From positions 1-46,112 of IMG/VR virus record IMGVR_UViG_3300022309_000010: a stretch of 46,112 bases of DNA; one strand, given 5' to 3'. Source of the stretch: a virus. Lineage: Duplodnaviria > Caudoviricetes. The notes under the pieces were generated by a model that was not told the DNA's origin, did no database searches, and saw only the letters and a program-made list of their open reading frames with translations. Both the position numbers and the translations under genes were made by a program. Numbering within the stretch: position 1 is the first letter of the stretch; every line of letters starts with the position of its first letter. This document shows positions 6,568-41,290 of this stretch, piece after piece.

Positions 6568-6591
6568 TGTGCGGCCTATTTGCTGTTATGA
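6568..6591 (+). mobile_element. collapsed attC-like mini-site at the left edge of the cassette array
   Basis: TGTGCGGCCTA-TTTGCT-GTTATGA; 22 bp identical to 8565-8586; GTT at 6585. Confidence 0.6.
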
Positions 6592-8545: not shown

Positions 8546-8565
8546 TAATTTAACCCTCAAAGTAT

Positions 8566-8588
8566 GTGCGGCCTATTTGCTGTTATAT
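8566..8588 (+). mobile_element. collapsed attC-like mini-site
   Basis: GTGCGGCCTA (9/10 complementary to the cassette start TATGCCGCAC, 7791-7800)-TTTGCT-GTTATAT. Confidence 0.7.
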
Positions 8589-10015: not shown

Positions 10016-11086
10016 CTAAATTCTCATCGGCATAATAACGTGACAATCATTCCCACCGCTAGCCGGGATCAATATCGGGCGGTTATTATCTCCAGTGATT
10101 CCGATTTGTATAATATCATCGTCGATGGAATTTATGGCATCGCTCAAATAATGATGATTGATACCGACCTCAAAAACAATATTCGATCCGCCATCGTCAA
10201 ACGCAATACAGTCCACCGCGCTTTCGTTCAAATTGTTGTTGGATTTTATTTCCAACTCGCCTTTGCTAAACGACAACATAGCGCCGCTGAATTTATCAGT
10301 TGTAATCGACGAAACTCGATTTATGGCCGATTTTAACTCGCCCAGGTTAACCGCCACATATTGCAAATTGGTCGGCACTATCGCTGCGTAGTTCGGGTAT
10401 TTGCCGTCTATCAACATGGCCGTTACTCGCACATTGCCGGATGTAAATGTGGCAAGGTTTGCGCTTGATGTTAGTTTAATTTCGGTTGACTGCAACACCG
10501 ATAGCTTGCGAATGGTTTTTTTCGGCAAAATGAAACCTTCTTTCGTGTTTACTTTCGGCCTATCAATCTTGATTCCGCAATACGCTAACCGGTGGCCATC
10601 GGTTGCAACAATTCGATTCTGTACGATGTCGAAAAACGCTCCGTTTAAATAGTGCCTTACGTCATTATCGGCAACGGCATATTCAATCGTGCGAATCGCT
10701 TTCGCCAGCTCCGTACCGTCGATAACGTATTCATCACCCGCAGCGACCGGCATCAAAGGAAAATCATCGGCGGACATTTTTTCCAGCTTGAATCGTGAGC
10801 GGCCATATTTAACCGTTAGTTTTTCCGCATTATCAATAACAACATCGGAGTTATCCGGCGCGTTTTTCAAAACAGAATCCAGCTTTTCAAGATTAACGCA
10901 AAACCTTTCCGCGTCGCCTTCGTAGTGTGTAGATATTTCTATTTCCGCTGTTCCATCGGACGCAAGTATTTTCAGCTTGTTGTTGCCAGTCGTGATCATT
11001 GCGTTACTGTAAACTGCGTCTTTACGGTTAGATGCTGATTTAACCGCTGAAATTACAGAGTAGAAAATTTCTTTTTTGATTATCAT
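10016..11086 (-). CDS. dnaN: DNA polymerase III beta sliding clamp
   Basis: 356 aa; DVRHYLNG, VATDGHRLA, LIDGKYPNY, C-terminal VIMPMRI. Confidence 0.93.
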   Translation of the reverse strand: MIIKKEIFYSVISAVKSASNRKDAVYSNAMITTGNNKLKILASDGTAEIEISTHYEGDAERFCVNLEKLDSVLKNAPDNSDVVIDNAEKLTVKYGRSRFKLEKMSADDFPLMPVAAGDEYVIDGTELAKAIRTIEYAVADNDVRHYLNGAFFDIVQNRIVATDGHRLAYCGIKIDRPKVNTKEGFILPKKTIRKLSVLQSTEIKLTSSANLATFTSGNVRVTAMLIDGKYPNYAAIVPTNLQYVAVNLGELKSAINRVSSITTDKFSGAMLSFSKGELEIKSNNNLNESAVDCIAFDDGGSNIVFEVGINHHYLSDAINSIDDDIIQIGITGDNNRPILIPASGGNDCHVIMPMRI

Positions 11087-11136
11087 TTAATTCCCCTTTT
11101 GCATAAAAAATCTGAATCAAGCCTTATTTTTTGACG

Positions 11137-11607
11137 CTAGATCGACCGCCCATTATTTAACCTAAACGCCCCCTTGCTGGCCAAGATCCACCCAAAATAC
11201 GCAGCCGATCTTGTATCGGGGTTGCTCCTTTTGGTCCAGCCGGTCACCCGCTCAAACATGGCGCCATTGTTTTTCCAATCTGAGCGGCTTGGGCGCGACT
11301 TTGTGACACCATAGCCTAATCTGGCCAACATCCTTTCCAGTTCAACCTGGGCTTGCTGGCAGCGTCCTATGTGTATCCCCACCTTGCTTTGCGCCTCCTT
11401 CCCCGCTTGTCGATTTTTGGCGTATATCGTGTTTGTTGCTAGTGTATCCTCAATCGAAAATATCACGCCACTTTTATCACTCACATTTTCATTCAGCCAA
11501 TCGAACAGCTCGAACAATTGAAAACTATGAAGCGCAACAAGTTTTTCATTTTCAAATATCGCTATGCCATGCGCCTTGGAATCAGGATCAACGCCGATGA
11601 CTATCAT
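11137..11607 (-). CDS. RuvC-like (RNase H fold) nuclease, Holliday junction resolvase candidate
   Basis: VIGVDPD...GIAI at the N-terminus; IED; D.RSA at the C-terminus. Confidence 0.7.
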   Translation of the reverse strand: MIVIGVDPDSKAHGIAIFENEKLVALHSFQLFELFDWLNENVSDKSGVIFSIEDTLATNTIYAKNRQAGKEAQSKVGIHIGRCQQAQVELERMLARLGYGVTKSRPSRSDWKNNGAMFERVTGWTKRSNPDTRSAAYFGWILASKGAFRLNNGRSI

Positions 11608-11795
11608 TTAGCTTTAGTCGGCTGTTTTTTGTTGATCGTCGGGACGTAAGGATTAATTTTTGCATAATCGTTTGTAGCCATTCCAAACGGTACGACCGTA
11701 ACTTTTGAATCGTCATAATCGCTAGTTTTGTTCATTGTTTCGAGTGGTAGCGCTTCTTTGTTGTGTCGCACGGCTCTTAGGTCTAGTCTGTTCAT
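11604..11795 (-). CDS. hypothetical protein
   Basis: overlapping start/stop with neighbours. Confidence 0.6.
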   Translation of the reverse strand: MNRLDLRAVRHNKEALPLETMNKTSDYDDSKVTVVPFGMATNDYAKINPYVPTINKKQPTKAK

Positions 11796-12040
11796 TATTC
11801 CCCCTTCTTCAATTTGTTCACTTCGGCCATTCTCGAGACAAGTTCATTGACTCGCTCTTGTGACTTAGCCGCCATTTCTGTTTTACGCAATTCCCAAGCA
11901 GGGCGTCCTTCTTTCCTGAATATCACTATCCACGCACGCGCTTCACAATCAAGAAGCCATTCAGGGCAGTAAGAGCACCGATTGCCTTGCGTCGTTAGCT
12001 TGCTTTTTTCTTTGTCGCAATGGTCGCAGGTGTCGGGCAC
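11795..12040 (-). CDS. hypothetical protein with two CxxC motifs
   Basis: CDHC...CSYC. Confidence 0.6.
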   Translation of the reverse strand: MPDTCDHCDKEKSKLTTQGNRCSYCPEWLLDCEARAWIVIFRKEGRPAWELRKTEMAAKSQERVNELVSRMAEVNKLKKGE

Positions 12041-12339
12041 TCTATAAACTCACTTATCACCCCGGAAAACATCGTCATCATTGTATAATATTGCCGGTGG
12101 TCAAATACAAAAATGAAATCGCTTGTGCAATCAGGGCGATCTAGTCGAACGCACATTTCCACCGCGCATATTTCCATTACCTCATGGCACAAGATGGAAA
12201 AAACCATGTCTTCGCACTTGGTGCCTATGGTTATCAACATTTCCGAATAAGCAAACGACCCGCCCCACGAATCAGGGTTCCACTCTATCTTAAATTCGCG
12301 GCCATTTATTTTGACTTTATCCAATCGTTTTATTTTCAT
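11995..12339 (-). CDS. hypothetical protein, metallopeptidase-like HExxE motif
   Basis: ILCHEVME. Confidence 0.55.
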   Translation of the reverse strand: MKIKRLDKVKINGREFKIEWNPDSWGGSFAYSEMLITIGTKCEDMVFSILCHEVMEICAVEMCVRLDRPDCTSDFIFVFDHRQYYTMMTMFSGVISEFIECPTPATIATKKKAS

Positions 12340-12340
12340 T

Positions 12341-12724
12341 TTAGTGAAGGCCCATGTCTTGTGGTTTCTTTGTGGCTGGCGGGCCAATAGGTCGATCCTT
12401 GCTGCCTACCAGCGGCATTTTAAGCCATTCGCCGCTAACTATCGCAGCAATTATTTTATCAAGCGCTTTAATCATTTCCGGCGTCATGTTATCCGCTTTC
12501 ATGCCCGGCATAATATCAGCCAGCATTTTTGACTGTTCGCGCCATTCAATTTTAATTTCATTGACCTTGAGCGAACTTCTTAGCCAATTGTCGTTAACCC
12601 AATAATACACTTTGCCATCTGATATTTTATACATCAACCCTTTAATTTTAATAAAGGCATTGGCTGCTATCACTTCCGCAGCGGCTTTCTTTTGCAGTCG
12701 CATATCCATATCGCACATGATCAA
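12341..12724 (-). CDS. hypothetical protein
   Basis: GGAGG RBS; operon packing. Confidence 0.65.
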   Translation of the reverse strand: MIMCDMDMRLQKKAAAEVIAANAFIKIKGLMYKISDGKVYYWVNDNWLRSSLKVNEIKIEWREQSKMLADIMPGMKADNMTPEMIKALDKIIAAIVSGEWLKMPLVGSKDRPIGPPATKKPQDMGLH

Positions 12725-12900
12725 ACGGCCTCCAGGTTTTCATCTTCGTATGAGTAAATAGGCAACGGCGAGCAATCTTCACACAACGAAGCGCCAGGAT
12801 ATTTTATCTGCCACCTTGATGATATTAACATTCCGCACTTCATGCAGCAGTCCAATGCGGTGATCCCATTACACTCTTGCTCTTGTAGTTCTTCGTTCAT
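12721..12900 (-). CDS. small zinc-finger-like protein
   Basis: CMKC...CEDC; ATG at 12900 after a G-rich RBS. Confidence 0.55.
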   Translation of the reverse strand: MNEELQEQECNGITALDCCMKCGMLISSRWQIKYPGASLCEDCSPLPIYSYEDENLEAV

Positions 12901-12947
12901 TTCCCCTTCCCCCTTGTGTGTTGTTGTTAAACTTCGCTTATACGACA

Positions 12948-13145
12948 TCACCCTTCATAATCAAGCCAGACAGTAACTATCGATGCTGGATAAATAAAAA
13001 CGCCAATGCCGTGTACCACTTCGCATTTATAGTTATTGCTTGGCTCAAAATCACATTCAATAAATTTAACGGCATTGACTACCCACGGCGCGGCGAGCAA
13101 AACAAAAACTAGCGCGATTGATAGCAATAAGTTTTGTGTGCTCAT
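12948..13145 (-). CDS. small membrane protein
   Basis: N-terminal TM helix; CDFE...CEVVHGIG. Confidence 0.65.
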   Translation of the reverse strand: MSTQNLLLSIALVFVLLAAPWVVNAVKFIECDFEPSNNYKCEVVHGIGVFIYPASIVTVWLDYEG

Positions 13146-13747
13146 AATACTTTTTTAACCCCTCTTATAAAGTCGTCCATGGCATATTTAAAACCAGAAA
13201 ACATATCTTCAGCCGCACCGTCGTATGCTATTTTCCAGCTTGATATAATATATTTCTGTATATCTTTGGCGGTGTCGTTTATTGTCGTTGACTCGCCGTG
13301 GAATTTAATCAAAAGATGGTCGCCATCTTTTTTCGGCAAAACTCCAAACTCTTTTATTCTGTCGCGGTCTCCGTTGATAAGACTGACAACCGCCAACACT
13401 ACATCTTTAGCCGTGACAGCAAACGCGGCAGCTGCGCTCGCATAGACCAAAATTGCATCGTCAGAATGATCCATGTTTTCTGTCTCCAATATTTGAATGG
13501 CTTCTTTCAGCTTGAACGATTCATCATTCATCGCACGCGAAAACCAATCAGGATTATTCACAACCGGCGCAGCCTGCTTGCGTTCTTCGAGTATGCGCTT
13601 GTAAATGTCGCCTTTGTAAATCGGAACACTTCGTGGCGCGTCTATGCCAATGTTAACCGTGTCGGCTTCACCAAAGCCGGTTACACGAATAACAATGTCA
13701 TCACCTATGTGAATTGTTCCGTTTTTTCTCAGTGGTAAAATCAGCAT
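13142..13747 (-). CDS. CsrA/RsmA-like domain fused to a tape-measure-like domain
   Basis: aa 1-55 follow the CsrA pattern (MLIL...IGDDI.I.V...V.IGIDAPRSVPI...IY.RI); aa 82-186 align without gaps to tape-measure aa 112-216. Confidence 0.85.
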   Translation of the reverse strand: MLILPLRKNGTIHIGDDIVIRVTGFGEADTVNIGIDAPRSVPIYKGDIYKRILEERKQAAPVVNNPDWFSRAMNDESFKLKEAIQILETENMDHSDDAILVYASAAAAFAVTAKDVVLAVVSLINGDRDRIKEFGVLPKKDGDHLLIKFHGESTTINDTAKDIQKYIISSWKIAYDGAAEDMFSGFKYAMDDFIRGVKKVL

Positions 13748-13758
13748 TTTCTATCCCC

Positions 13759-13787
13759 ATGTTGTACATTAAAAAAGTGTACAACAT
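13759..13787. repeat. inverted repeat with 10-bp arms upstream of the csrA-like gene
   Basis: ATGTTGTACA-9nt-TGTACAACAT. Confidence 0.6.
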
Positions 13788-13805
13788 TATTCTGTTTTTT
13801 GCATA

Positions 13806-14000
13806 TCAAAAAATAACAATCTTCCGATAATTGTCGAAAGAAATGCTGCTGCCTGTTTCATTTTTTGTCGTAGTCGATAGCTTTTCGTGACCACATTTCA
13901 GACATCGGTGGCCAGATTTAAATGGCCCATGAAAAGTATCGACACTTTTAGCTCCACATTTTGAGCAAACAAATATTGGAGCTGTTGCGTAATGAGGCAT
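13806..14000 (-). CDS. small zinc-ribbon protein
   Basis: CSKC...CLKC. Confidence 0.6.
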   Translation of the reverse strand: MPHYATAPIFVCSKCGAKSVDTFHGPFKSGHRCLKCGHEKLSTTTKNETGSSISFDNYRKIVIF

Positions 14001-14016
14001 AGTGAGACGGCAATGC

Positions 14017-14415
14017 TCAATCTTGTTCCGACTGGAATTCCATCCAGTTATGCCAGAATTCTTTCTTTGCTTTTGCATAGTCCCATAGTTGCCGACCATC
14101 TGTTGGTCCATCAACATAAGGCCCTGTTTCATCGCTAAACCGGTTCTTTGTGCGTAGCGCAGATAAGATGCAAGCCGGACAGTTATTCGCAGATTTGCGC
14201 ATAGCTTCAAACCCTTCAGTATCTAAAATTCGCACAAGTTCATCGCGAGTCGGCGACCATTCTGCCAGCTTGGCATTTACCATCATTCTGCACATGCCGC
14301 ACACTCGATTAGGATTTAGTGTGCATCCAGATTCATGTCGTTTCATTGCGCTAGGGCTTCCATTCCCCTTGCTGCAATAATCGCAATAATATCGCGGCCT
14401 CATTGCAGTTCTCAT
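14017..14415 (-). CDS. Cys-rich phage hypothetical protein
   Basis: YYCDYC...HE.GC..NP.R.C..C...CPAC. Confidence 0.75.
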   Translation of the reverse strand: MRTAMRPRYYCDYCSKGNGSPSAMKRHESGCTLNPNRVCGMCRMMVNAKLAEWSPTRDELVRILDTEGFEAMRKSANNCPACILSALRTKNRFSDETGPYVDGPTDGRQLWDYAKAKKEFWHNWMEFQSEQD

Positions 14416-14615
14416 AAAACCTCCTCTGTATTTTTAGTAGATTCTGGCGTACACTTTTCCCGTATAAATTCTTGACCAACAGATACCAGAACGCCAGCAC
14501 GGTCAGGGTGCCGCCACAGGTTCCATGCAATTCTCAGAGCTTCCCAAGGGTTGCACGGGTTCATTAAATACCATCCCGACTTGCCCTGCACGATCAATTT
14601 CCTATATCTCGCCAT
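14412..14615 (-). CDS. hypothetical protein
   Basis: AGGAG RBS. Confidence 0.6.
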   Translation of the reverse strand: MARYRKLIVQGKSGWYLMNPCNPWEALRIAWNLWRHPDRAGVLVSVGQEFIREKCTPESTKNTEEVL

Positions 14616-14631
14616 GATCCATCTCCTAATA

Positions 14632-15024
14632 TCAACCGATATGTCTCGGAATAACCCCGTAAGCCAAGCAACCAAACCTGCTATCTACATCCATATCATC
14701 TTTCCGCATTAATCCCGTTTCCCCGTCAATGCTATCAGTTTCAAATTCATCTTTCAAAAAAGGGAACAGCCACAGCGGGATGAGCATCATTGGGTTATCG
14801 TCTTCCCATCGTTCAAAGCCAAGCTCCCGCATTTGATCCGCTGACATATCGCACGGGTCGATATTAAGCAAGTCTTTTCCTTTTTCGCTAGCGGCCAACT
14901 TCTCTGGGAGTTTGCGGATATTTTCCGATGAAAAATCATTTTCCCAGCTCTGATACACCATAATCTCAGCAGCACGGTTAACAATGATCTTGCGTAGCCT
15001 TACGCATTTTTCATATGTGTTCAT
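14632..15024 (-). CDS. phage hypothetical protein
   Basis: LGF.RW...LIPLW...D.D.RFGCLAYG; AGGA RBS. Confidence 0.75.
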   Translation of the reverse strand: MNTYEKCVRLRKIIVNRAAEIMVYQSWENDFSSENIRKLPEKLAASEKGKDLLNIDPCDMSADQMRELGFERWEDDNPMMLIPLWLFPFLKDEFETDSIDGETGLMRKDDMDVDSRFGCLAYGVIPRHIG

Positions 15025-15049
15025 TTCTATATCCTTTGTTTTGTCAATA

Positions 15050-15478
15050 TCAGAACGGAATATCATCGTCAAAATCAGGCGCACCACTCGAAGCGTTTGG
15101 AGCACTAGCCGCAGGATGTTGCGAAGGAGACGATTGGCCGCTTGGCTTGCCGTCGAGCATTTGAATTTCACTCGCAACAATTTGCGTAGTGTAGCGGTCT
15201 TGGTCGTTTTTGTCTTTCCATTTTTGCTCGACATATTTTCCGCTCACAAAAACCTTGGACCCCTTTTTACAATACTGCGCGATAATTTCGCCCAGCTTGC
15301 CAAACGCGACAACTCTAACCCAATTCGTGCGTTCGACTTTATTGCCCGACTTGTCTTTGTAGTCATCGCCGCAGCCAATCGAAAAACTAACCACCGATTC
15401 ACCGCTCGGCATGTACTTGGTTTCAGGGTCTTTGCCCATTCGTCCGATAAAATTACATTGGTTTAAATCTTTGGCCAT
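15050..15478 (-). CDS. ssb: single-stranded DNA-binding protein
   Basis: LN...IGR.GKDPE, KKGSKVFVSG, acidic tail DFDDDIPF. Confidence 0.96.
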   Translation of the reverse strand: MAKDLNQCNFIGRMGKDPETKYMPSGESVVSFSIGCGDDYKDKSGNKVERTNWVRVVAFGKLGEIIAQYCKKGSKVFVSGKYVEQKWKDKNDQDRYTTQIVASEIQMLDGKPSGQSSPSQHPAASAPNASSGAPDFDDDIPF

Positions 15479-15536
15479 TTTTTATTGGTCCTTTGCTAAG
15501 TTTATTCGTCATGCTTATTTGTGTCTCGTCCAATAT

Positions 15537-15737
15537 TCAACGCATTGCGCTGTACTTGCTTCTTGTTTCGCAGCCTAGAACTAATGATTTCCCGCCGACG
15601 CTAGTTGCCCAGCTAAATGATATATCTGTTATCTGTAAATTATGGTCATCACTAATATCCTGCAAAACTTTAATAAGTTCTTTTTGTAGCACAGATTCGA
15701 CACTTACCTTAACCGTTAAATTTTCTAAGCTAGCCAT
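15537..15737 (-). CDS. hypothetical protein
   Basis: AAGGAG RBS. Confidence 0.7.
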   Translation of the reverse strand: MASLENLTVKVSVESVLQKELIKVLQDISDDHNLQITDISFSWATSVGGKSLVLGCETRSKYSAMR

Positions 15738-15751
15738 TTTTTCTTGCTCCT

Positions 15752-15973
15752 TTATATCAAATTGTTCACGATCTGAGCTATCTTGCCTATGTCCAGTTGA
15801 TCAACTTTTTGTTCATATATCTGAGTTTCACGAACAACGGTTTTTTCTATCTCGGGAGTATACCCGTATGCAGAATCGGGAGCGGCGGAAATTTTCGCCC
15901 ACTCTTTCCCTGACTTTTCGACAGTCCGAACAACCGCTTTTACTGTTACAATGTAACTAATTGCGTCTTTCAT
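15752..15973 (-). CDS. hypothetical protein flanked by 19-bp direct repeats
   Basis: AAGGAG RBS; CATTTTTTCTTGCTCCTTT at 15735 and 15971. Confidence 0.7.
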   Translation of the reverse strand: MKDAISYIVTVKAVVRTVEKSGKEWAKISAAPDSAYGYTPEIEKTVVRETQIYEQKVDQLDIGKIAQIVNNLI

Positions 15974-15990
15974 TTTTTCTTGCTCCTTTT

Positions 15991-16815
15991 CTACATCGCG
16001 CCAACGATGTCATTATATTTAGCCATCACCGCTTTCATATCGTCCTGGCTCAACAAAGAGCTGGCCGTGGATAGCGCTGCATCGGCATCATCAAGATTCT
16101 TTGCAGATTCCAGCATTGACAGTGCTTCTTGTAGTGTAAATTCTGGCGATGTTTGATCGTCTGTTTTTGCCAAGTCTTTTGTGGTGACTTGATAAGTGCC
16201 AGAATCGTCAATTTCAGCATCGTAAGTATCCGCAATTTGATCCTCTGTTTGAAGGCCCATTGAAATTTCAGGCGCGACAGTATCAACCAGCCAAGCGGCG
16301 GCGCGATACATAAACATTTTTTCAGGCATTGTTTTCCATTTGCTGCCCGGCTTTTGGTCCCACTTCTCGCCACGCACTAGCGCCCATGTGATCCACGGTG
16401 ATTCCACTTTTGCGCCGGTAGATTTTTCTATTGCCCATGCTTTACATCCAAAGTCGTCGTTTTTTTCCGATCCTTTCCATTCATATCGGATAGATGAAAA
16501 TCGCCCACATTGATTGAATGACGCAATTAAAAACTTGGCTGACCAACCTGGCCGACCATGAACAACATATAAATTTTGCATCACCATCAAAGGCGAAGCG
16601 CCGACACGGTTTGCCATTTCCAACGCTATCACGCAGTTGGACAGGTTGTTTGTGTACTGAGCAGGAACCAGCGTAGACGCTGCCAGCATCTTTGCTTGTC
16701 GCTGCATTAGGGCAAACCCTGACTCACTGTTGAATCCAGGGATCACAGCGGCGCCATTCTGAGATGGCATTTTCTGCATTTGTGACAATGTAACTTGCTT
16801 AACTTCTTCGTTCAT
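15991..16815 (-). CDS. single-strand annealing protein (RecT/Beta-like)
   Basis: LVP.QY...NC.IALEMA.R.G.SPL.VMQNLYVVHGRP.W...W.TMPE.M..YRA; lies between the exonuclease and ssb. Confidence 0.8.
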   Translation of the reverse strand: MNEEVKQVTLSQMQKMPSQNGAAVIPGFNSESGFALMQRQAKMLAASTLVPAQYTNNLSNCVIALEMANRVGASPLMVMQNLYVVHGRPGWSAKFLIASFNQCGRFSSIRYEWKGSEKNDDFGCKAWAIEKSTGAKVESPWITWALVRGEKWDQKPGSKWKTMPEKMFMYRAAAWLVDTVAPEISMGLQTEDQIADTYDAEIDDSGTYQVTTKDLAKTDDQTSPEFTLQEALSMLESAKNLDDADAALSTASSLLSQDDMKAVMAKYNDIVGAM

Positions 16816-18046: not shown

Positions 18047-18418
18047 TTAACCGGCCTGATCAGTCAAAAAAATATACCGCGTTTCCCGTTCGATTCTTTC
18101 GCTTTCCCTTGCGTGGTCTTGTATAAATTCCAGCAGCTCCACTTCTACATTAAATTCAACATGCGCCAACAACCTTGCGCGCAAATACTTCCCAAGCGCT
18201 TCATCATTACCCATGCGCATATGGCATGATATTTCTTTTGCTTCATCCTCGCAAATGTTTTCTAGCTGGTCCCATGCGTCGCGCATTATTTCATGATCGC
18301 TCAAATATTTTAGCAATATGCGCTGGCGTTCGTTTTCAATTTCACGGGGTGACGGGTAATTCATTTTGTGTTGCCTTTGCTTGTTAAGCGCTTCGTTTTT
18401 TACAACGGCCATCTTCAA
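18047..18418 (-). CDS. hypothetical protein
   Basis: operon packing; start codon uncertain. Confidence 0.6.
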   Translation of the reverse strand: MKMAVVKNEALNKQRQHKMNYPSPREIENERQRILLKYLSDHEIMRDAWDQLENICEDEAKEISCHMRMGNDEALGKYLRARLLAHVEFNVEVELLEFIQDHARESERIERETRYIFLTDQAG

Positions 18419-18809
18419 CGACTTTCGGGAAAAATTTATGGCTCCCTATTTTGATGTAGTTTTTAGATGTCCAGCACGGTGAGACGTAATCAGCATGGTA
18501 ATGCAAGCTGCCCATAGTTACATCCATTTTTTCGGCCATTTTTAAAAAAACAAACTGGGCCGCAATGCGCCGCGAATCGTCCCAAGCTGCGCGGTCGAAT
18601 TTGTTTGTAATTTTTGGGAGCGAATGTTTTTTCTCTTTGAAATAAGAGAATTGGTTTTTTTCTGAGATAACGGCGCAAATATCAGACGGATAGCGCCCGG
18701 ACTTAACGCGGTTCATCACGACGTTAGCCACAGCTATTTTCCCAATTTCAGGCTGATTGCCTGCTTCGTAAAAAATAGCTAAGGCTAGACACATAAAGCT
18801 AGATAACAT
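18384..18809 (-). CDS. cell wall hydrolase, SleB/Hydrolase_2 family
   Basis: CLALAIFYEA, AVANVVMNRV, YP..IC.V....QFS, IGSH.F. Confidence 0.9.
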   Translation of the reverse strand: MLSSFMCLALAIFYEAGNQPEIGKIAVANVVMNRVKSGRYPSDICAVISEKNQFSYFKEKKHSLPKITNKFDRAAWDDSRRIAAQFVFLKMAEKMDVTMGSLHYHADYVSPCWTSKNYIKIGSHKFFPKVVEDGRCKKRSA

Positions 18810-24323: not shown

Positions 24324-24728
24324 TTATTCATCCATTTTTATTCCGCAAGCGGAAATTATTTGATCAAGGCCTTGTTCAACAACGGCGACGGTTGATTCTT
24401 CGCTTCCAAGTTTATTACGCAGCGCTTCCACCGATTCTTTTTGGTTCTCGATTGTGATCAAAGCCATTTTAAGAAGCCCGATTAATTTGAGCGTTATGCC
24501 TCGCTCGTCCTTGAGCGCTTGCTTGTATTGCTCCACCAGGTTCATGGCCTCGTCCGTTAGATCAACGTGATTAGCAAGCGGCGCACCATCAATAAACGAT
24601 GCTAGATTTACGTTTCTAATGCGCCTCACTTTTTCTAGCTCCGCCTCATAGATGTCGAAACCAATTTCTACGCCTTGCGCTAACAAGCCAGCGGTGTACG
24701 GGTTTTTTGGTCTGTTCATTATTTCCAA
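24324..24728 (-). CDS. hypothetical coiled-coil protein
   Basis: last gene of the leftward cluster. Confidence 0.65.
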   Translation of the reverse strand: MEIMNRPKNPYTAGLLAQGVEIGFDIYEAELEKVRRIRNVNLASFIDGAPLANHVDLTDEAMNLVEQYKQALKDERGITLKLIGLLKMALITIENQKESVEALRNKLGSEESTVAVVEQGLDQIISACGIKMDE

Positions 24729-25165
24729 CCTCTTTCGAGTTTTAGTTTTTCATACCATTCTAAGGGTGCTTTGCAATCCCTAACAAGCCAATAAGCTGCT
24801 GAGGAAGGATAACCTGTTTTAGCGTTTTCAATTACCTTCATAGCCCATTTTAAAGGTGCACCATATTTAGTAAGTTTATAAGCTTCCCAGGAAGGATTCC
24901 CTGTTTTAGCATTCTCAACTACTCTCATAGCCCATTCTAAAGGAGCAGCACCATATACCATAAGATAGTAAGCTGCTCCAGAAGGGGCTCCTGCGGTAGC
25001 CTCTTCAAAATATTTCATAGCAGGATTTAGAAGTTCCGGGAATTTTTTTGCAAAATCCCACCAACAATCTTTTTTCTTAACTTTAGAAACATCTCCACCA
25101 AGATATTTAACAAGTTGTTTTCCAAATTCTACGTCAAAATCATAAGGACAATCTGGCTTATTCAT
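24719..25165 (-). CDS. helical-repeat protein (three ~29-30-aa repeats)
   Basis: AM...E.A..G.PS..AY.L....APL.W x3; visibly AT-richer than its neighbours. Confidence 0.75.
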   Translation of the reverse strand: MNKPDCPYDFDVEFGKQLVKYLGGDVSKVKKKDCWWDFAKKFPELLNPAMKYFEEATAGAPSGAAYYLMVYGAAPLEWAMRVVENAKTGNPSWEAYKLTKYGAPLKWAMKVIENAKTGYPSSAAYWLVRDCKAPLEWYEKLKLERGWK

Positions 25166-25175
25166 TTCCGTGCTC

Positions 25176-25427
25176 CTAAATTTCCATCGACTTGAGTACA
25201 GTTCTTAGGGCATAGCGCGCCCAAGCTTTGCCTTTACTAGATTCCTCGACCAGGTTTAACACCGCGTCGAAAATGCCTTCAACGGGCGCTGGCCATCGTC
25301 CGCTAATTTCCCACCTATGCCAAGTTTGATACGGCGCTTTTTCGTTGCGCGTGAATATTTTTCCCGCTTCTGTTTCTGTCAGCTCAAGAGCCGCCCGCAC
25401 TTGTTGCGCTTTATTTTGATTTGCCAT
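25176..25427 (-). CDS. XRE-like HTH regulator
   Basis: QVRAALELTETEAGKIF...YQTWHRWE.SGRWP. Confidence 0.65.
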   Translation of the reverse strand: MANQNKAQQVRAALELTETEAGKIFTRNEKAPYQTWHRWEISGRWPAPVEGIFDAVLNLVEESSKGKAWARYALRTVLKSMEI

Positions 25428-25605
25428 TATCGTCACCTTTGCTTTTTATTTTGCTGTTACATTCGTCGGCAGATAAATGCCGAAACGATTCAACGTGCGG
25501 CGTATTGAGCCAACCCGAATCGCGCTGGATGTAGCGCTCGCAATCGAATCGGATCGAACATGCATGATCGTGGCATCGTGATATGTCGTTTAATAGTCTA
25601 GTCAT
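25411..25605 (-). CDS. small Cys-rich protein
   Basis: DISRC....C..R..CERY. Confidence 0.6.
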   Translation of the reverse strand: MTRLLNDISRCHDHACSIRFDCERYIQRDSGWLNTPHVESFRHLSADECNSKIKSKGDDNGKSK

Positions 25606-25786
25606 CGATTTTTACCGCGCAGCGAAAGCGAACGTCGCAAACTTCCGCCACGGCCTTGCCTGATTCTGCCAGCGCATCAAACCAACAATTGTTCGGCTCG
25701 ATTGCAGATTTATCTACGCCGATTTTTTTAGCGACAAATTCGGATAGTGCGCGAATTATTTCAGATTCACTCAATTTAATTTCCAT
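25598..25786 (-). CDS. hypothetical protein
   Basis: MEIKLSESEI; AGGGG RBS. Confidence 0.6.
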   Translation of the reverse strand: MEIKLSESEIIRALSEFVAKKIGVDKSAIEPNNCWFDALAESGKAVAEVCDVRFRCAVKIDD

Positions 25787-25787
25787 T

Positions 25788-26201
25788 TTAATTCCCCTTT
25801 TTGTCAATTTTAGCAATGCACGGCTTTTGCCAATCAATTTGCGAGTCGAGCAACTTGCAGAAGTGGTACATCTTCAAAGCTGTGTCGTCAGGGCTTGCGT
25901 TTTCAATTTGCAGCAACCTATCTTTCATATTCATTACATAATCATGCGCTTCAAAGATGAAATTTTCGCGAATAACGGACGTTAGTTCATAATCGCGCTC
26001 GATGTCCACCGGCCAAGAATCTGGCTGCCTATATCCGTCACCGTGAATTTCAGACATTACAAAATGCTGAATTTCGTCGAAGCACTGGCCGACAAAAGTT
26101 AAATTTTCAAAATCGGAATCCCAGCAATTCAAGCCGCATCGAGTTTTTACAACGTGCATATATGCGTCGCATCGTTGCGTCATTAGTTCTTTTGCGTCCA
26201 T
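25788..26201 (-). CDS. hypothetical protein
   Basis: operon packing. Confidence 0.7.
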   Translation of the reverse strand: MDAKELMTQRCDAYMHVVKTRCGLNCWDSDFENLTFVGQCFDEIQHFVMSEIHGDGYRQPDSWPVDIERDYELTSVIRENFIFEAHDYVMNMKDRLLQIENASPDDTALKMYHFCKLLDSQIDWQKPCIAKIDKKGN

Positions 26202-26204
26202 CGC

Positions 26205-26468
26205 TCAATCCTCAATTTCAACAACGTCAAAAGATATTCCATCATCGCTGATTCTGCAAAGTTCAGTATGTCCGGAAATTGAGTAATGACAAGATATTTC
26301 AAAACATGCAGAATTTCCTTCATCAATACTTTTTTCCACTTCGGCGGCCCATGCCCGGATCATGCTGTCGGTGAAATGGTCGCCACCAAGCTTGTGCTTG
26401 TCGGCCAAATGTTGCTTAATTTCAGCAAGCCCGATTGCGTTGACGTAATAAACGTTACATTTAGTCAT
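26205..26468 (-). CDS. hypothetical protein
   Basis: AGGGG RBS after a repeated hairpin. Confidence 0.75.
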   Translation of the reverse strand: MTKCNVYYVNAIGLAEIKQHLADKHKLGGDHFTDSMIRAWAAEVEKSIDEGNSACFEISCHYSISGHTELCRISDDGISFDVVEIED

Positions 26469-26483
26469 TTTGATTCCCCTTTG

Positions 26484-26514
26484 TTAGTTTGCCCGACCGT
26501 AGCCGGGCTTGGTG
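26484..26514 (-). repeat. 31-bp intergenic hairpin repeat, copy 1 (UACG loop)
   Basis: - strand CACCAA GCCCGGC TACG GTCGGGC AAACTAA. Confidence 0.85.
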
Positions 26515-26523
26515 GTTGCTCAA

Positions 26524-26718
26524 TTAATCGCTGTATCCATACTTTGCGAGTTTGCAGCGTATATGATCATTAAACCCGCCCCAAACCAGTGGGTTACATC
26601 CTCGCTTCGCCATATCATCTATTACAGCGCGATAAACATCTGCGTGACTATAGCTGTACGGCGACATTTTTGCGGATATGCGTTTAAAAGAATTATCGGT
26701 TCTGATTCTGTAGTTCAT
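26524..26718 (-). CDS. hypothetical protein
   Basis: GAGGA RBS after a repeated hairpin. Confidence 0.7.
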   Translation of the reverse strand: MNYRIRTDNSFKRISAKMSPYSYSHADVYRAVIDDMAKRGCNPLVWGGFNDHIRCKLAKYGYSD

Positions 26719-26731
26719 TTTTCTGATCCTC

Positions 26732-26762
26732 TTAGTTTGCCCGGCTTGCGCCGGGCTTGGTG
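26732..26762 (-). repeat. 31-bp intergenic hairpin repeat, copy 2 (GCAA loop)
   Basis: - strand CACCAA GCCCGGC GCAA GCCGGGC AAACTAA. Confidence 0.85.
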
Positions 26763-26763
26763 A

Positions 26764-27051
26764 TTACTCGATTGTTATGCCGCTAAATGCGCGGTCCCAG
26801 TCAGCCGCCGCGCCATCGCCGTCAGCGCCAAATATTGCGGCATCGTCATCGGCGTTAGTGTAGTACCATACTGTAATGATAGAGTCGTTGACTGTCACTG
26901 ATCGACACCACTCTGTGTATGTATCCCCCTGCATTGATCCGTTGTAGCCCACTGCGCAGGTAGGTTCCACGCCACGATTAAGCAGGTCGTCAATTACCTG
27001 TACACCAACGATGGCCTTAGCTTCCTCGACTGACAAATTTCCCTTAAACAT
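26764..27051 (-). CDS. hypothetical acidic protein
   Basis: AGGGG RBS; first gene after a promoter. Confidence 0.75.
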   Translation of the reverse strand: MFKGNLSVEEAKAIVGVQVIDDLLNRGVEPTCAVGYNGSMQGDTYTEWCRSVTVNDSIITVWYYTNADDDAAIFGADGDGAAADWDRAFSGITIE

Positions 27052-27101
27052 GATTATTCCCCTTTTTCGTTACCAGCCAAGCCCGCCTTGACTGTGACTA
27101 A

Positions 27102-27130
27102 AGTATATTACACTGTGTATCGTATTGCAA
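27102..27130 (-). promoter_or_regulatory. sigma70 promoter with a palindromic operator in the spacer
   Basis: TTGCAA-17-TATACT; TTACACTGTGTAT at 27108-27120. Confidence 0.7.
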
Positions 27131-27155
27131 GATAGTTTCTTAAATATTTTTTGAG

Positions 27156-27431
27156 CTACTCGCCCATTGTCATGTGCTTGACTTGTGCGGTGTACGAGTC
27201 GTCCATCATATCGCCTTGTGTTTTTTCGAAGACCTCATCAACTTGGATATTGCGATAGCTCAGCGCGTCGCCACGACCTGCGGCCTTTGTTGCGGCCTTG
27301 ATTTTGGCAAATGCGGCATCTGTCATGCGGTAATATTTGCTTGATACATCAACAGCCTCAATTTCGCCATTTGGGCGGCGGATAACCACTTCCACGCCTA
27401 TCGTTTTTTTGTAAGTCACTTTGTTGTCCAT
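27156..27431 (-). CDS. hypothetical protein
   Basis: MDNKVTYKK; AGGA RBS. Confidence 0.7.
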   Translation of the reverse strand: MDNKVTYKKTIGVEVVIRRPNGEIEAVDVSSKYYRMTDAAFAKIKAATKAAGRGDALSYRNIQVDEVFEKTQGDMMDDSYTAQVKHMTMGE

Positions 27432-27463
27432 TTTCCTGCCCTTGTTTGCTTGCCCATGGATTA

Positions 27464-27493
27464 ATCTTATTACACAGTGTAACGTCCCGTCAA
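27464..27493 (-). promoter_or_regulatory. sigma70 promoter with a palindromic operator in the spacer
   Basis: TTGACG-18-TAAGAT; TTACACAGTGTAA at 27470-27482. Confidence 0.65.
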
Positions 27494-27603
27494 GCCCCGC
27501 CTTTAACTTTTTTGTGATATTTCTTTTTTTTTGGCTATCTTTTATAAAAAAACGCAACTAAACTCTGGCACTATATACCCTAAATCATATAAGGGGGCGA
27601 AAA

Positions 27604-28082: not shown

Positions 28083-28675
28083 TCGAAAGAAAAGAGTTCC
28101 TTCTAAAAAAATTAAGCCCTGAACACGCAGAGACATTTTCGCGTCTTGATGTAGATACTCAATTTTTTGTCACAGCGGTGGTTGAAGGTGAAAAGCCATG
28201 GTCCGCATACATTGAATTCATCAATGGACGAAAAACAAAAGCGTCGGCGGAAAAATTAGCGGCGGAAATACTTTCAGATAAAGCGATTAATGCGCTTGTC
28301 GAATCCGTTACGAGCGCCGAAGACGACGGCGACATCATGACAAGAAAAGAAGCGCTGCGAAGGCTAACGAGATTTGGTCGCGCTTCAATTTCTAAAATTG
28401 CTGAACTAACTAACGTTGAAATGGTGGACGCTAACGGGTTGTCGTTCAATTCGCTTAACGTATCTTTGAAAGATTCTACGAACTTAACGGACGATGACAT
28501 CTCAATCATTTCAGAAATAACAGCCAAAAACGGCGCGTTTAAAGTCAAAATTCATTCGCCGTTATCTGCCATTGAACAGATACGGAAGATGGAAGGCTGG
28601 GATAACGATAAGCCAATGCTAAATGATGACGTTGCCCGTATGCTAGGATTGCTAATCAGTTCGCGGCCATCATGA
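28079..28675 (+). CDS. terS: terminase small subunit
   Basis: directly before terL; IMTRKEAL.RLT...R and K.KIHSPL.A..Q..KM.GW. Confidence 0.8.
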   Translation: MIERKEFLLKKLSPEHAETFSRLDVDTQFFVTAVVEGEKPWSAYIEFINGRKTKASAEKLAAEILSDKAINALVESVTSAEDDGDIMTRKEALRRLTRFGRASISKIAELTNVEMVDANGLSFNSLNVSLKDSTNLTDDDISIISEITAKNGAFKVKIHSPLSAIEQIRKMEGWDNDKPMLNDDVARMLGLLISSRPS

Positions 28676-31080
28676 CCAATAGCGCAACAGCAAACAGAAT
28701 AAAAAAACAAGTGGATAGGTGGTATCCGCTGAAAGATGTTGCTGAGCAAATTCGCTTGGTGAAAGCCGCGAATGAAGGGCTTAGGTTTCCTGTTATCCCG
28801 GCGGGTCGCCGATGCTTGGAAGAAGGAACGCTTGTGGCCACGCCTAGCGGCCCTGTGGCCATCCAAAATCTAAAGGTGGGCGATTATGTAATCGGATATG
28901 ATAACGGCGCTCACGTCACTACAGTGACTGACATTTGGGATAATGGCGAGCAAGAAGTTATTGCGCTCAAAAGCAGAAACACTGAATTTTTAGCAGCAAC
29001 AAAAACACACAAGCTATGGGCCACTAACGAATCGATGCTTGATAAACGCAGGCCGCATATCGCTGAAAAATACAGCAGGGTTGAGGTAGGTAATCTAACA
29101 AAACGCAGCAGGGTTAAAAAGCAATATTGCCACGACCTGATAAACGGCGGCGAGAAAAATGTAAAATATACTTATGTTCTCGGCGCCATGTCAGGCAATG
29201 GTTGCTGTAGAGAGAGCGGCGGCGGTTCTGGGGTGCACCAAAAAAACCTGTATATTTCATCGCCAGATGACAGCGTGCCGAAAAAAATAGCGACCATGTT
29301 AGAGTGCGAATTTAAGAGCAACCACGAAGAAAACTACACATATGCTATTTGCTTGGGAAATGGTGCGGTTGAGAAAGTGCCGTTTTATAAAGCATGGATG
29401 CACAATCGATACAGTCACGAAAAAATATCGCCGTGGCCAGAGGTTGATCTTTGGGATAAAGAATCCGCTTTGTCTTTTCTTGCGGGTGTTCTTGATACCG
29501 ATGGCAGCGTTTATTTTAAGTCGGAATCAAGGAAAGAAATTGTTGTCGCTATATCAATGCAAGCTCTTGACGTTATAAAGACGTGCCAGAAGATAATATT
29601 CAAATACATGCAGGAGCTTTTTACAATACACGAAGATTCCCGAGAAAAATATAAGAATGGGAGCGTGCATTGTTTGCGGTCAGGATCGAACGGGCAAGCC
29701 TTGCATCTTATCGACTGCCTGAAAGAGTACTCTTTGCGGTGCCAGAATATAAATATTGATGACGTGTCTTGTAGAGGATCAGGCCATAATCGAATTGGAT
29801 TGGCAAAGTCATCGACGAGAATAGCGACGACTTACGATATAACGGTTGGCAATTCTACCAATCTGTATATCTTGCATCATGGCGGAATCGTTACATCTAA
29901 CTCGGGCAAAAGCGAACGAGCAAAGCGCCATATAGTTAAATCTGCGTTTAAAATTCCCGGCATGTACTTCGCCGCAGCTCCTACGCACGACCAAGCGAAA
30001 AAAATATTCTGGAACGATCTAAAAGATTTGGCAATATCAGCGGCACTTCCAAAGCCGCCATCGGAAAGTAACAGAATTATATTTTTACCTAACGGTTCTG
30101 AGATACACGTCATGGGCATGGATAAGCCGGAACGCATTGAAGGCATACCGTGGAAAGGCGGAATACTGGATGAGGTTGCGAATATAAAAGAGCACGCAAT
30201 CAATGAAAACATAATGCCCGCGCTTAACACCAAGACGCCAAACGACCCAAACTATAAAGCATGGTGCTGGTTCTTAGGTGTTCCAGAAGGTTTGAATCAC
30301 TACTATGACATGGCCATGCGCGCAAAGAGTGGCGTCGATCCTGACATGGGCTACTTCCATTGGTTAAGTTCAGAAGTTCTTGATGCGGACGTTTTGGAAA
30401 AAGAAAAAGCACGATTAAGCCCTAGGCAATATCGCCAAGAATATGAAGCAAGTTTTGAAACGGCATCGGGCCGAATATACGAAGATTACTGCGAAAAGAA
30501 TCACACTAGGCGAACAATCCAACCGCATGAACGTCTGATGTGGTGCCACGACCAGAACTTCACGCCGCTATCGTCTGCAATAGCAGTGAGAGAAGGCAAT
30601 CAGATTTTCTTGCTTGATGAAATTGTTTTAGAATCGGCGGTATCAAAACAATCGGCGATTGAGTTTGTCGATAAGTTCAGAAACCACCAAAATAAACACG
30701 TCCTGATTTATGGCGACCCATCTGGCAGAAACGGCGAGAAGCACGCGCACGAATCTGACTACGAAGAAATAGAAAAGGTTTTACGAAACAACAAATGGAC
30801 GTATGAGCGGCGTGTTGACACGTCACACCCTAGCATCAAAGATCGACAAAACGCAGTTCGTGCTAAAATATGTAATGCGTTAGGCAACCGAACTTTATTT
30901 GTAAATCCAGCAACGGCGAAATGGTGTGACAAAGGATTGTCTACAGTTCAGTTGCAAAAAGGATCTTCGTTTCAAGAAGATCAAACGAATCCGTATCAAC
31001 ATATAACCACGGCTATTGGATATATGACTAGTCGAGAATTCCCGATTCAGTCGGGCACTACAACCGTAGGAAGAATTTGA
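28672..31080 (+). CDS. terL: terminase large subunit with an intein
   Basis: Walker A AGRR/SGKS, APTHDQAK, Walker B ILDE, QEYEASF, nuclease domain (HDQN, YGDPSG). Confidence 0.95.
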   Translation: MTNSATANRIKKQVDRWYPLKDVAEQIRLVKAANEGLRFPVIPAGRRCLEEGTLVATPSGPVAIQNLKVGDYVIGYDNGAHVTTVTDIWDNGEQEVIALKSRNTEFLAATKTHKLWATNESMLDKRRPHIAEKYSRVEVGNLTKRSRVKKQYCHDLINGGEKNVKYTYVLGAMSGNGCCRESGGGSGVHQKNLYISSPDDSVPKKIATMLECEFKSNHEENYTYAICLGNGAVEKVPFYKAWMHNRYSHEKISPWPEVDLWDKESALSFLAGVLDTDGSVYFKSESRKEIVVAISMQALDVIKTCQKIIFKYMQELFTIHEDSREKYKNGSVHCLRSGSNGQALHLIDCLKEYSLRCQNINIDDVSCRGSGHNRIGLAKSSTRIATTYDITVGNSTNLYILHHGGIVTSNSGKSERAKRHIVKSAFKIPGMYFAAAPTHDQAKKIFWNDLKDLAISAALPKPPSESNRIIFLPNGSEIHVMGMDKPERIEGIPWKGGILDEVANIKEHAINENIMPALNTKTPNDPNYKAWCWFLGVPEGLNHYYDMAMRAKSGVDPDMGYFHWLSSEVLDADVLEKEKARLSPRQYRQEYEASFETASGRIYEDYCEKNHTRRTIQPHERLMWCHDQNFTPLSSAIAVREGNQIFLLDEIVLESAVSKQSAIEFVDKFRNHQNKHVLIYGDPSGRNGEKHAHESDYEEIEKVLRNNKWTYERRVDTSHPSIKDRQNAVRAKICNALGNRTLFVNPATAKWCDKGLSTVQLQKGSSFQEDQTNPYQHITTAIGYMTSREFPIQSGTTTVGRI
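28813..29901 (+). mobile_element. 363-aa intein with LAGLIDADG homing endonuclease
   Basis: starts CLEEGTLV, block B AT.THKLW, ends TYDITV...GIVTSN followed by Ser; YVLGAMSGNG and FLAGVLDTDG. Confidence 0.93.
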
Positions 31081-31082
31081 AA

Positions 31083-39381: not shown

Positions 39382-41290
39382 TGAAATAGCACGTTTAGTT
39401 TTGCGCGTTGAGTCGCTTGAGGTTAAGCTTGCTGATGAGCGTACTAAAAAGCTAAATGACGCATTAAAGGGCTCTCCTGGTATTGTAGAAAATGCAGAGA
39501 AGTCATTTAAGAAATTCTATAAACAGCTTGTTGCTGGCGTAACTGTTCTAGCTGCGTTTAACAAATCACTCGGCGAAGCTAGACAGTTAAGTATTTTTGA
39601 TGCGCAATTGCAAACAGCTACCGGAAGCATTGAAGGTGCCGCCGATGCGTTTGAGCGCATGGAAAAGTTCGCAAGTAATACGCCGTTTGTTTTGCAGCAA
39701 TCAATCGATGCATTTGTTAAATTAAAAAACCTTGGTCTTGACCCGTCCGAAGAGGCAATGACTTCTTACGGCAACACGGCAGCGGCCATGGGTAAGGATA
39801 TGCTTCAATTAGTTGAGGCAACGGCAGATGCTGTTTCCGGGGAATTTGAGAGGCTCAAGGAGTTTGGAATAAAAGCCAAATCAGAGGGCGACCGCGTTAC
39901 GTTTACATTTCGCGGCGTGGCCACTGAGGTCGGTAAAAACGCAGAAGAAATCCAGCGCTATTTAATTTCAATTGGCCAAACAGAATTTGCAGGCGCTATG
40001 CAAAAGCGCATGGAAGGACTTGATGGTCTGATATCTAACTTGCAAGATTCTTGGGATTCTCTTTTCAGGGCCGTGAATGAAAATGGCGTGGGAAAAGTAA
40101 TTGAGTTAGGTATCCGTGGCGCGATTGTTGTCATTGAAGATTTGAAAGAATTGCTAGGCGTCACTAGCGCAGCATTGCGCGGCAATACCGTTGAAGTAAA
40201 TTCGATGACAGAAGCGGCCATTCGTTTTGGCGAATCGCAGCAACGAATAGCAGATAAAACGGAAGCAATAGAGAAAAGCCAAAAAGCACTTTTGGCCACA
40301 ATAAAAAACATTGAAGCGGCTAGAGATAAACAGGTAGCTCTAGCATCGGCTAACGCTACAAGTGAGGAAGCGATAGCGCGTGTTCGTGATGCAATTTCTA
40401 TTCGCTATAACAAGCAAATAGAATCTATAGTTGCAGCACAATCAGGCCACCATGAACTATTAAAAACCCAGCTTGCCGAAGAAATATTTATTCGGAATCA
40501 GCTTAACTCAGTTATAAAATCAGCCGTTCCACCACCGGAAGCAAAGAAAAAACAAGGTGCGTTTGGGCTGACATCGACGTTTGACGAGGAAATGGCAGAA
40601 ATGGAAGCCATGCGTCAAATGACGTATGCGTTTGGCATCAAGCGTTACGAAGAACACAAGGCAATTAACGACCAGATTATCGCCGACAAAAAACGAGAGG
40701 TTGACGAAGGTTGGGCGGCGTATTACGACCACAAGGCAATAAATGATGCGGCGATTGAAGATGAAAAGAGAAAAGCGCAAGCGATAAAGGCGTCGCGAGA
40801 ATCTATTCTAAGCTCTACCGCATCCATTCTTGGTTCACTTGCGTCTATGGAAAGCAGGGAGAGCCAAGCGAGTTTAGAGCGCTACAAAAAACTGGCTTAC
40901 GCTGAAACATTAGCGGCGACATATCTATCGGCGCAAAAAGCATGGGCAGAAGCGCCCGGTCCAATCGCTGGCGGCATAGCAGCAGCGGCGGCGACCGTGG
41001 CAGGATTGGCGAGAGCTAAGCAGATTAGTAATCTTAAACTAGGCAGTTCTGGCGGTGGTGGTGCCGGTGGAGGATTTGGCGGTGGCGTCGGAGGTGGTGG
41101 TGGCAATGAGCTAGCGCCACTCATTCCAAGTCCATTGCGAAGAGAGCAGCAAGATATCAATATCGTTGTTAAAATCGGCGAAGATGCTGCGATAGAAATT
41201 GCGCGAGTTGGTGTGCCGCTGGCCATCAACAATGATATGATTGTAATGCAAACAGCAAGCGGTCTTGAACGAGTTCAAATGGTGGCCTAA
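39374..41290 (+). CDS. tail tape measure protein
   Basis: 638 aa, Ala-rich and helical; FA..TPF, ERLKEFGI, SNL.DSW. Confidence 0.93.
   Translation: MSDEIARLVLRVESLEVKLADERTKKLNDALKGSPGIVENAEKSFKKFYKQLVAGVTVLAAFNKSLGEARQLSIFDAQLQTATGSIEGAADAFERMEKFASNTPFVLQQSIDAFVKLKNLGLDPSEEAMTSYGNTAAAMGKDMLQLVEATADAVSGEFERLKEFGIKAKSEGDRVTFTFRGVATEVGKNAEEIQRYLISIGQTEFAGAMQKRMEGLDGLISNLQDSWDSLFRAVNENGVGKVIELGIRGAIVVIEDLKELLGVTSAALRGNTVEVNSMTEAAIRFGESQQRIADKTEAIEKSQKALLATIKNIEAARDKQVALASANATSEEAIARVRDAISIRYNKQIESIVAAQSGHHELLKTQLAEEIFIRNQLNSVIKSAVPPPEAKKKQGAFGLTSTFDEEMAEMEAMRQMTYAFGIKRYEEHKAINDQIIADKKREVDEGWAAYYDHKAINDAAIEDEKRKAQAIKASRESILSSTASILGSLASMESRESQASLERYKKLAYAETLAATYLSAQKAWAEAPGPIAGGIAAAAATVAGLARAKQISNLKLGSSGGGGAGGGFGGGVGGGGGNELAPLIPSPLRREQQDINIVVKIGEDAAIEIARVGVPLAINNDMIVMQTASGLERVQMVA

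Follow-up and report, generated by a model that had tools for sequence, protein, structure and literature searches.

What could a phage gain from a single protein in which a CsrA domain and a TMP_3 tape-measure domain are joined in one frame? This question is raised by a 201-aa ORF in the window, that is, the whole 46,112-nt stretch of DNA that was analyzed. The window is a near-complete siphovirus-type genome of an uncultured phage from sediment, in which bases 9-134 recur at 45987-46112.

Genomic context of the fusion gene

The head and tail genes run rightward from 28 kb, and the leftward genes at 7.8-18.8 kb encode RecT, an exonuclease, SSB, a beta clamp, a Holliday-junction resolvase and a methyltransferase. 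The fusion gene lies in this leftward cluster; some 26 kb separate it from the tail genes, and from this position we infer that it is expressed early. A sequence-only reading of the window had likewise placed the gene in an early operon far from the tail genes, and its position is consistent with this. No integrase was found among the 88 ORFs (of 223 mechanically called) that were scanned against PHROGs, and the sole HTH protein among them is 65 aa long. The collections searched contained no close relatives of the phage, a pattern scan with its tape measure gave no relative, and the nearest viral relatives found for its DNA polymerase III beta clamp (10016-11086, minus strand) are eight loci at 24-29% identity. 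A single public run contains the fusion locus; it is a sediment metagenome and possibly the origin of the window. No RNA dataset with the locus is listed.

The features of the locus are collected in Table 1. The arm of the inverted repeat upstream of the fusion gene has no copies elsewhere beyond chance, and the 101-nt leader holding this repeat gave a z of -2.8. Promoter matches in the region are at chance level (22 found, 19.4 expected). The codon adaptation of the fusion gene is 0.77, within the 0.70-0.80 of 12 native genes, a value that mutation bias could also give.

Table 1. Coordinates of the fusion gene, its flanking signals and the tape-measure gene of the same phage.
Feature	Position	Strand	Basis or remark
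Fusion ORF (P0001), 201 aa	13142..13747	-	Translation; identical in second assembly
Shine-Dalgarno-like GGGGA, 6 nt before ATG	13754..13758	-	Sequence
Perfect 10-bp inverted repeat, directly before ribosome site	13759..13787		Hairpin or operator candidate
Sigma-70-like promoter match upstream of fusion gene	13810..13837	-	Promoter scan
Next gene, 65 aa, phrog_6006	12948..13145	-	ATG overlaps fusion stop as ATGA
Degenerate CsrA domain, residues 1-58	13574..13747	-	Pfam, PDB sequence alignment, column counts
TMP_3-like domain of fusion, ~residues 67-201, N-terminal edge uncertain	13145..13549	-	Profile, AF2, BFVD, ESM Atlas
Gapless core, fusion residues 82-186	13190..13504	-	Alignment to own tape measure
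Tail tape-measure gene, 638 aa	39374..41290	+	Pfam/PHROGs annotation
TMP_3 domain (PF20155) of tape measure, residues 71-236	39584..40081	+	45.1 bits, cut-off 41

A 46,008-nt Logan contig (depth 13.4) spans both stretches of the window that were compared, the fusion locus (11500-15500) and the portal region. It may come from the same sample and counts as a second assembly, not as a second occurrence. At the fusion locus, this contig does not differ from the window; because it exposes an error in the portal gene (see the last section), the comparison is able to reveal errors. An assembly chimera, which the sequence-only reading had named as a danger, is therefore unlikely, since the second assembly carries the locus letter for letter; a chimera or frameshift at the fusion was rejected on this ground.

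The CsrA half keeps its core and has lost its RNA-binding residues

The N-terminus had been described as CsrA-like, with the HREE motif reading YKGD, and both points held. PF02599 (CsrA) matched residues 1-52 with 54.9 bits against a cut-off of 27, and in an alignment to E. coli CsrA (1y00_A) the motif is replaced by Y44 K45 G46 D47, one residue being inserted earlier. The changes are, in E. coli numbering, T5P, R6L, E10G, R31N, H43Y, R44K and E46D. By column counts against 65 homologues, the core is retained (L2, L4, I14, G15, D16, I18, I20, V22, V31, I33, G34, A37, P38, Y49 and I52). R6 and R44 are conserved in 119/119 homologues, which are the best profile matches and thus biased to the consensus; the fusion has L6 and K45 instead.

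CsrA is described as an intertwined dimer in which R44 is essential for RNA binding and its replacement abolishes binding (PMC7366521), and in RsmQ the H43A or R44A change is reported to lower RNA binding (PMC9928087). As judged from these residues, the CsrA half has likely kept its fold, and RNA binding is likely lost because R6 and R44 are gone. It would thus fail as a CsrA regulator, the Arg44/basic RNA surface being absent, yet it resembles a dimer scaffold. Pro5 sits in the swapped strand, and dimer formation may be impaired.

CsrA proteins on mobile elements are already known. A csrA gene is reported in 30/2517 phages (PMC7366521), and the closest of these systems is RsmM/Bci of Pseudomonas phage AUS531phi (PMC7546807, PMC7366521), which shares the N-terminal CsrA domain (46% identical over residues 1-52), has an extra C-terminal part and lies near exonuclease and RecT genes. 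The match is confined to residues 1-52. Bci keeps the RR and HR motifs and has a 70-aa extension without a tape-measure match, whereas the fusion has lost the RNA residues, has neither an intact HR motif nor a Bci-type extension, and continues as TMP_3. RsmQ of plasmid pQBR103 (PMC9928087) is another mobile-element CsrA, reported to heterodimerise with host Rsm proteins; unlike the fusion, it is described with an intact VHR motif that binds RNA, and it is unfused.

The C-terminal half is a diverged tape-measure domain

The sequence-only reading had aligned residues 82-186 of the fusion without gaps to residues 112-216 of the phage's own tape measure (39707-40021), with 32/105 identities. The exact count is the same. 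The Smith-Waterman score is 160, against a mean of 35.9 (sd 5.3, maximum 76) for shuffled sequences, none of which reached it (0/2000), and 32 for the reversed sequence; BLASTP of the fusion against the own tape measure gave an E of 2e-16. Chance similarity was rejected on the shuffles. A profile of 148 tape measures matched residues 87-192 (68.6 bits, E 3e-22), and PF20155 itself gave no match to the fusion at E <= 1, below the Pfam threshold. The best 150 of 1401 matches are tape-measure-like, and the best non-self match among 1.84 billion representatives is 37% identical.

That the domain is a copy of the phage's own gene, as had been claimed, stood only as far as tape-measure homology. Among 1400 non-self matches to the fusion, the own tape measure comes 28th, and in a 32-row tree the fusion and the own gene are not sisters in the best trees; constraining them as sisters was not rejected, with an AU p of 0.38 from 2000 replicates, which the program called too few. 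From these sequence comparisons, the own gene is a possible donor. The TMP_3 subfamily to which this tape measure belongs is found in 531 phage records. In comparison with siphovirus TMP_3 proteins (PF20155; Guernseyvirinae/Xp12/PaMx74-type), the fusion is homologous and has the same predicted helix and three-stranded beta-meander. It differs in standing alone, outside the tail module, and without the other traits of a tape measure, a long helical protein whose gene follows those of the tail chaperones; the fusion is 201 aa long, on the opposite strand and devoid of a long helical shaft.

Divergence, selection and predicted fold

Over the aligned segment, the own tape measure has a mean identity of 62% to 63 other tape measures, and the fusion 27%. 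In the 32-row tree the fusion branch is 2.8 substitutions per site long where the median is 0.22; the tape-measure half has evolved at about 13 times the rate of ordinary tape measures. Because identities to the own gene by codon position are 57, 64 and 34 of 105, silent sites are near saturation. Only 15/37 near-invariant TMP columns are retained, with 4/20 before residue 130 and 11/17 after (51/1000 when corrected for the scan). The motifs GNTAxAMGK and EAVADA no longer have their original sequence; RxKEFG is retained together with the beta-meander.

Such divergence raises a rather unlikely alternative to any function: a fragment of a tape-measure gene would have entered a csrA moron by recombination, and this product of gene shuffling would now be under relaxed selection, both halves losing their old functions while weak selection does no more than preserve an open frame and prevent toxicity. 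The loss of near-invariant functional residues in both domains, the long branch and the failure to find a second example in our searches all fit this drift. The comparison with simulated neutral decay, run without indels from about 72-73 tape-measure segments chosen because they resemble the fusion (among the best 80 of 349), gave a divided answer. Taken singly, the retention of hydrophobic columns (20/26; 299/2000 simulations as high) and of polar columns (34/44; 119/2000) is not significant and favors drift, and the second-position identity test (8% of neutral simulations) and the proline test (5.6%) are weak. Against drift, substituted pairs have a mean BLOSUM score of -0.09 where neutral decay gives -0.55 +/- 0.15, and 0/600 simulations were as conservative; a stop-free frame, which the fusion keeps open and gapless, survives in 5% of simulations after about 143 mutation events, and the joint hydrophobic and stop-free test was passed by 17/2000. 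Pure neutral decay is therefore disfavored by the conservative substitutions and the joint test. In addition, the 148-tape-measure profile detected no tape-measure remnant in the other frames of 11000-16000 beside the gene, and the ATGA coupling to the next gene also speaks against drift. If the gene were a mere drifting fusion, it would be a clean case of tail/early-module domain shuffling, of modest interest.

The structure check proposed by the sequence-only reading supports a TMP-like fold in AF2 with an alignment and in the ESM Atlas, and fails with the sequence alone. With the tape-measure family alignment, on which the value leans, AF2 reached a pLDDT of 80.6, residues past ~175 being poorly predicted, and single-sequence AF2 gave only 37. 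The Atlas's own model matched tape-measure models with TM 0.69-0.73, and BFVD returned six matches at E <= 0.001, of which the one named is a tape measure. A search of solved structures with the TMP-like model gave nothing at E <= 0.001, and the best Z in another search was 4.6. The simplest reading of these sequence and model data is that selection has continued to maintain the fold while the surface has changed.

Search for further fusions

No second CsrA-tape-measure fusion was found among 279 candidates of 110-352 aa or in viral contigs. CsrA stands alone at 20/21 metagenome loci, the remaining one being the window's own record, and at 9/9 genome loci. Records covering 80% of the fusion query numbered 0/74 for phages and 0/133 for plasmids. 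The CsrA profile matched 0/80 tape-measure loci and, among 241 proteins, the fusion query only; conversely, the tape-measure profile matched 0/120 CsrA proteins. The large-database searches gave no two-domain match among the best 150 of 1401 and the best 120 of 5754. Within a single bacterial class, 4/401 genomes have tape-measure matches, and each match lies in a frame of 683-994 aa. In one 2.4-Mb bacterial genome there are nine such matches (frames of 963-994 aa), which suggests nine related prophages.

We found no paper on a CsrA-tape-measure fusion in a literature search that included few subscription papers; PMC12038007 mentions both genes, separately. What is new is thus the architecture, in one example, while both parts, phage csrA and extended CsrA forms are already known. 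The fusion is a singleton, but the phage lineage itself is unsampled, and singleton status does not show that the fusion is transient. It does take away the best test of function, that of dN/dS and a conserved architecture. Of the sequence-only reading's proposed search, then, other fusions did not appear, and moderate signs of selection on the fusion protein did, judged from its sequence. With a significant alignment, no evident chimera and these signs of selection, the fusion withstood two of the three refutation tests set by that reading.

A proposed decoy against tape-measure-sensing defence and its alternatives

Tape measures have only recently been established as immune triggers or targets (Avs18, SNIPE, Tab). 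SeAvs18 is reported to sense a conserved tape-measure segment of ~130 residues, and Mu residues 62-196 alone trigger it (Lee et al. 2026, PMC13581612). SNIPE is reported to bind tape measures during injection and to cross-link to one, with escape changes at Bas14 residues 100-150 (bioRxiv 2025.11.03.685801), and Tab to block tail assembly via the tape measure's C-terminal region (PMC10884400). Like the proposed function, Tab/anti-Tab and SNIPE are conflict systems acting on tape measures; in the cited parts of these two sources neither is described as tape-measure-derived, and the target of Tab is the C-terminal region.

With this precedent, the reading to which we give the highest probability, roughly one in three, is that the fusion is an early-made, dimeric mimic of a tape measure, serving as a decoy for a host factor. 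The CsrA half, its RNA-binding residues lost, would act as a dimerisation scaffold only, and the putative dimer would present two predicted folded TMP_3 cores and so sequester a host factor that recognises tape measures. This partner, we infer, would be an Avs18-like or SNIPE-like defence protein and not a factor of phage entry. The selective retention in the CsrA half (the core with G15, G34, A37 and P38 kept while R6 and R44 are lost) supports the decoy, as do the conservative changes in the TMP half over 105 gapless codons with a predicted fold, the presence of a ribosome site, the ATGA overlap with the next gene, a codon use like that of native genes and, by analogy, the targeting of tape measures by Avs18 and SNIPE.

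We mapped the Avs18 epitope, which likewise lies in the TMP_3 region, has ~130 residues and is sensed by shape with tolerance of low identity (PMC13581612), onto the fusion. In Mu, Pfam assigns tape-measure residues 106-266 to TMP_3. Mu 111 aligns to residue 89 of the own tape measure, and the fusion homology begins near own residue 91; Mu 196 falls at about own residue 163, equal to fusion residue 133, as placed by eye, the direct profile match to Mu being weak. By this mapping, partly by eye, the fusion covers approximately the C-terminal 60% of the epitope equivalent, plus the beta-meander region beyond. The overlapping stretch is the fusion's most altered part, the one with 4/20 conserved columns kept. 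An altered epitope fits a ligand that binds the sensor without firing it, or that avoids it; it equally fits loss of function.

Against the decoy stand its singleton status, the 15/37 near-invariant columns, the partial and most-altered epitope overlap and selection tests that are weak when taken singly. Moreover, an intact epitope made early could trigger a sensor instead of blocking it, and Pro5 may hamper the dimer. A narrower form, distinctly unlikely in our estimate, would be a recycled piece of a virion protein, in which a reshaped tape-measure core binds an immune factor without activating it and is made bivalent by a de-armed CsrA dimer. If this form is true, the phage would have a counter-defence built from the immune trigger itself. 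The protein would also be an instance of CsrA reduced to scaffolding, and its diverged TMP_3 core, free of the tail and borne on a dimer, is a ready reagent for testing whether phages meet fold-sensing immunity with decoys made from their own structural domains.

The same kept dimer core and lost RNA residues would also suit a dominant-negative CsrA, an unlikely alternative in which the RNA-blind domain heterodimerises with host CsrA, disables it and reprograms translation, the TMP domain being a bulky or stabilising appendage. Plasmid RsmQ is reported to pair in this way with host RsmA/RsmE (PMC9928087), and phages are reported to carry csrA alleles, some of them C-terminally extended (PMC7366521; Bci, 123 aa). 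However, both Bci and RsmQ retain the HR motif, and poisoning of CsrA does not account for the preserved predicted fold of a TMP_3 core of 135 residues.

Exclusion of rival phages, as a superinfection blocker, had been put forward together with the decoy and with a link to translational control; the first two gain from the precedent of tape-measure sensing by Avs18 and SNIPE, whereas the third loses weight with the absence of the RNA-binding residues. For exclusion, the TMP-like domain would occupy an entry factor or co-assemble with the rival's tape measure and block the tail. The wide spread of the TMP_3 subfamily would provide many possible targets, Tab is a precedent for blocked tail assembly through the tape measure, by another route (PMC10884400), and a domain that has diverged from the own tape measure might spare the phage from poisoning itself; we consider exclusion quite improbable. 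A translational regulator, whose CsrA half would bind RNA and couple tail assembly to mRNA control, is highly improbable: the Pfam CsrA match, the positive charge kept by K45 and the hairpin candidate before its own ribosome site favor it, and R6L, R44K, H43Y and R31N oppose it, in view of the reported effects of R44 replacement (PMC7366521) and of H43A/R44A in RsmQ (PMC9928087).

Other features of the phage genome

In the window, the portal gene (31077-32466, plus strand) is broken into two ORFs. At 31420 the Logan contig carries two more bases, which shows the break to be an error of the window's assembly. Within the N-terminal half of the large terminase (28672-31080, plus strand, 802 aa) lie a Hint domain and a stretch resembling an endonuclease; together they probably form an intein with a homing endonuclease. 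A cell-wall hydrolase gene (Hydrolase_2; 18384-18809, minus strand) heads the leftward early cluster and is separate from the GH108 endolysin gene at 1824-2378. A second leftward cluster (24324-27557, minus strand) consists of small genes of no assigned function and repeated intergenic elements. It includes a 42-nt repeat with copies at 26484 and 26732, and the ORF at 24719-25165 has three internal repeats of ~29 codons each. Finally, the DNA methyltransferase gene lies between the two copies of an exact 22-nt direct repeat (6568-6589 and 8565-8586), a sequence arrangement that suggests an inserted cassette.
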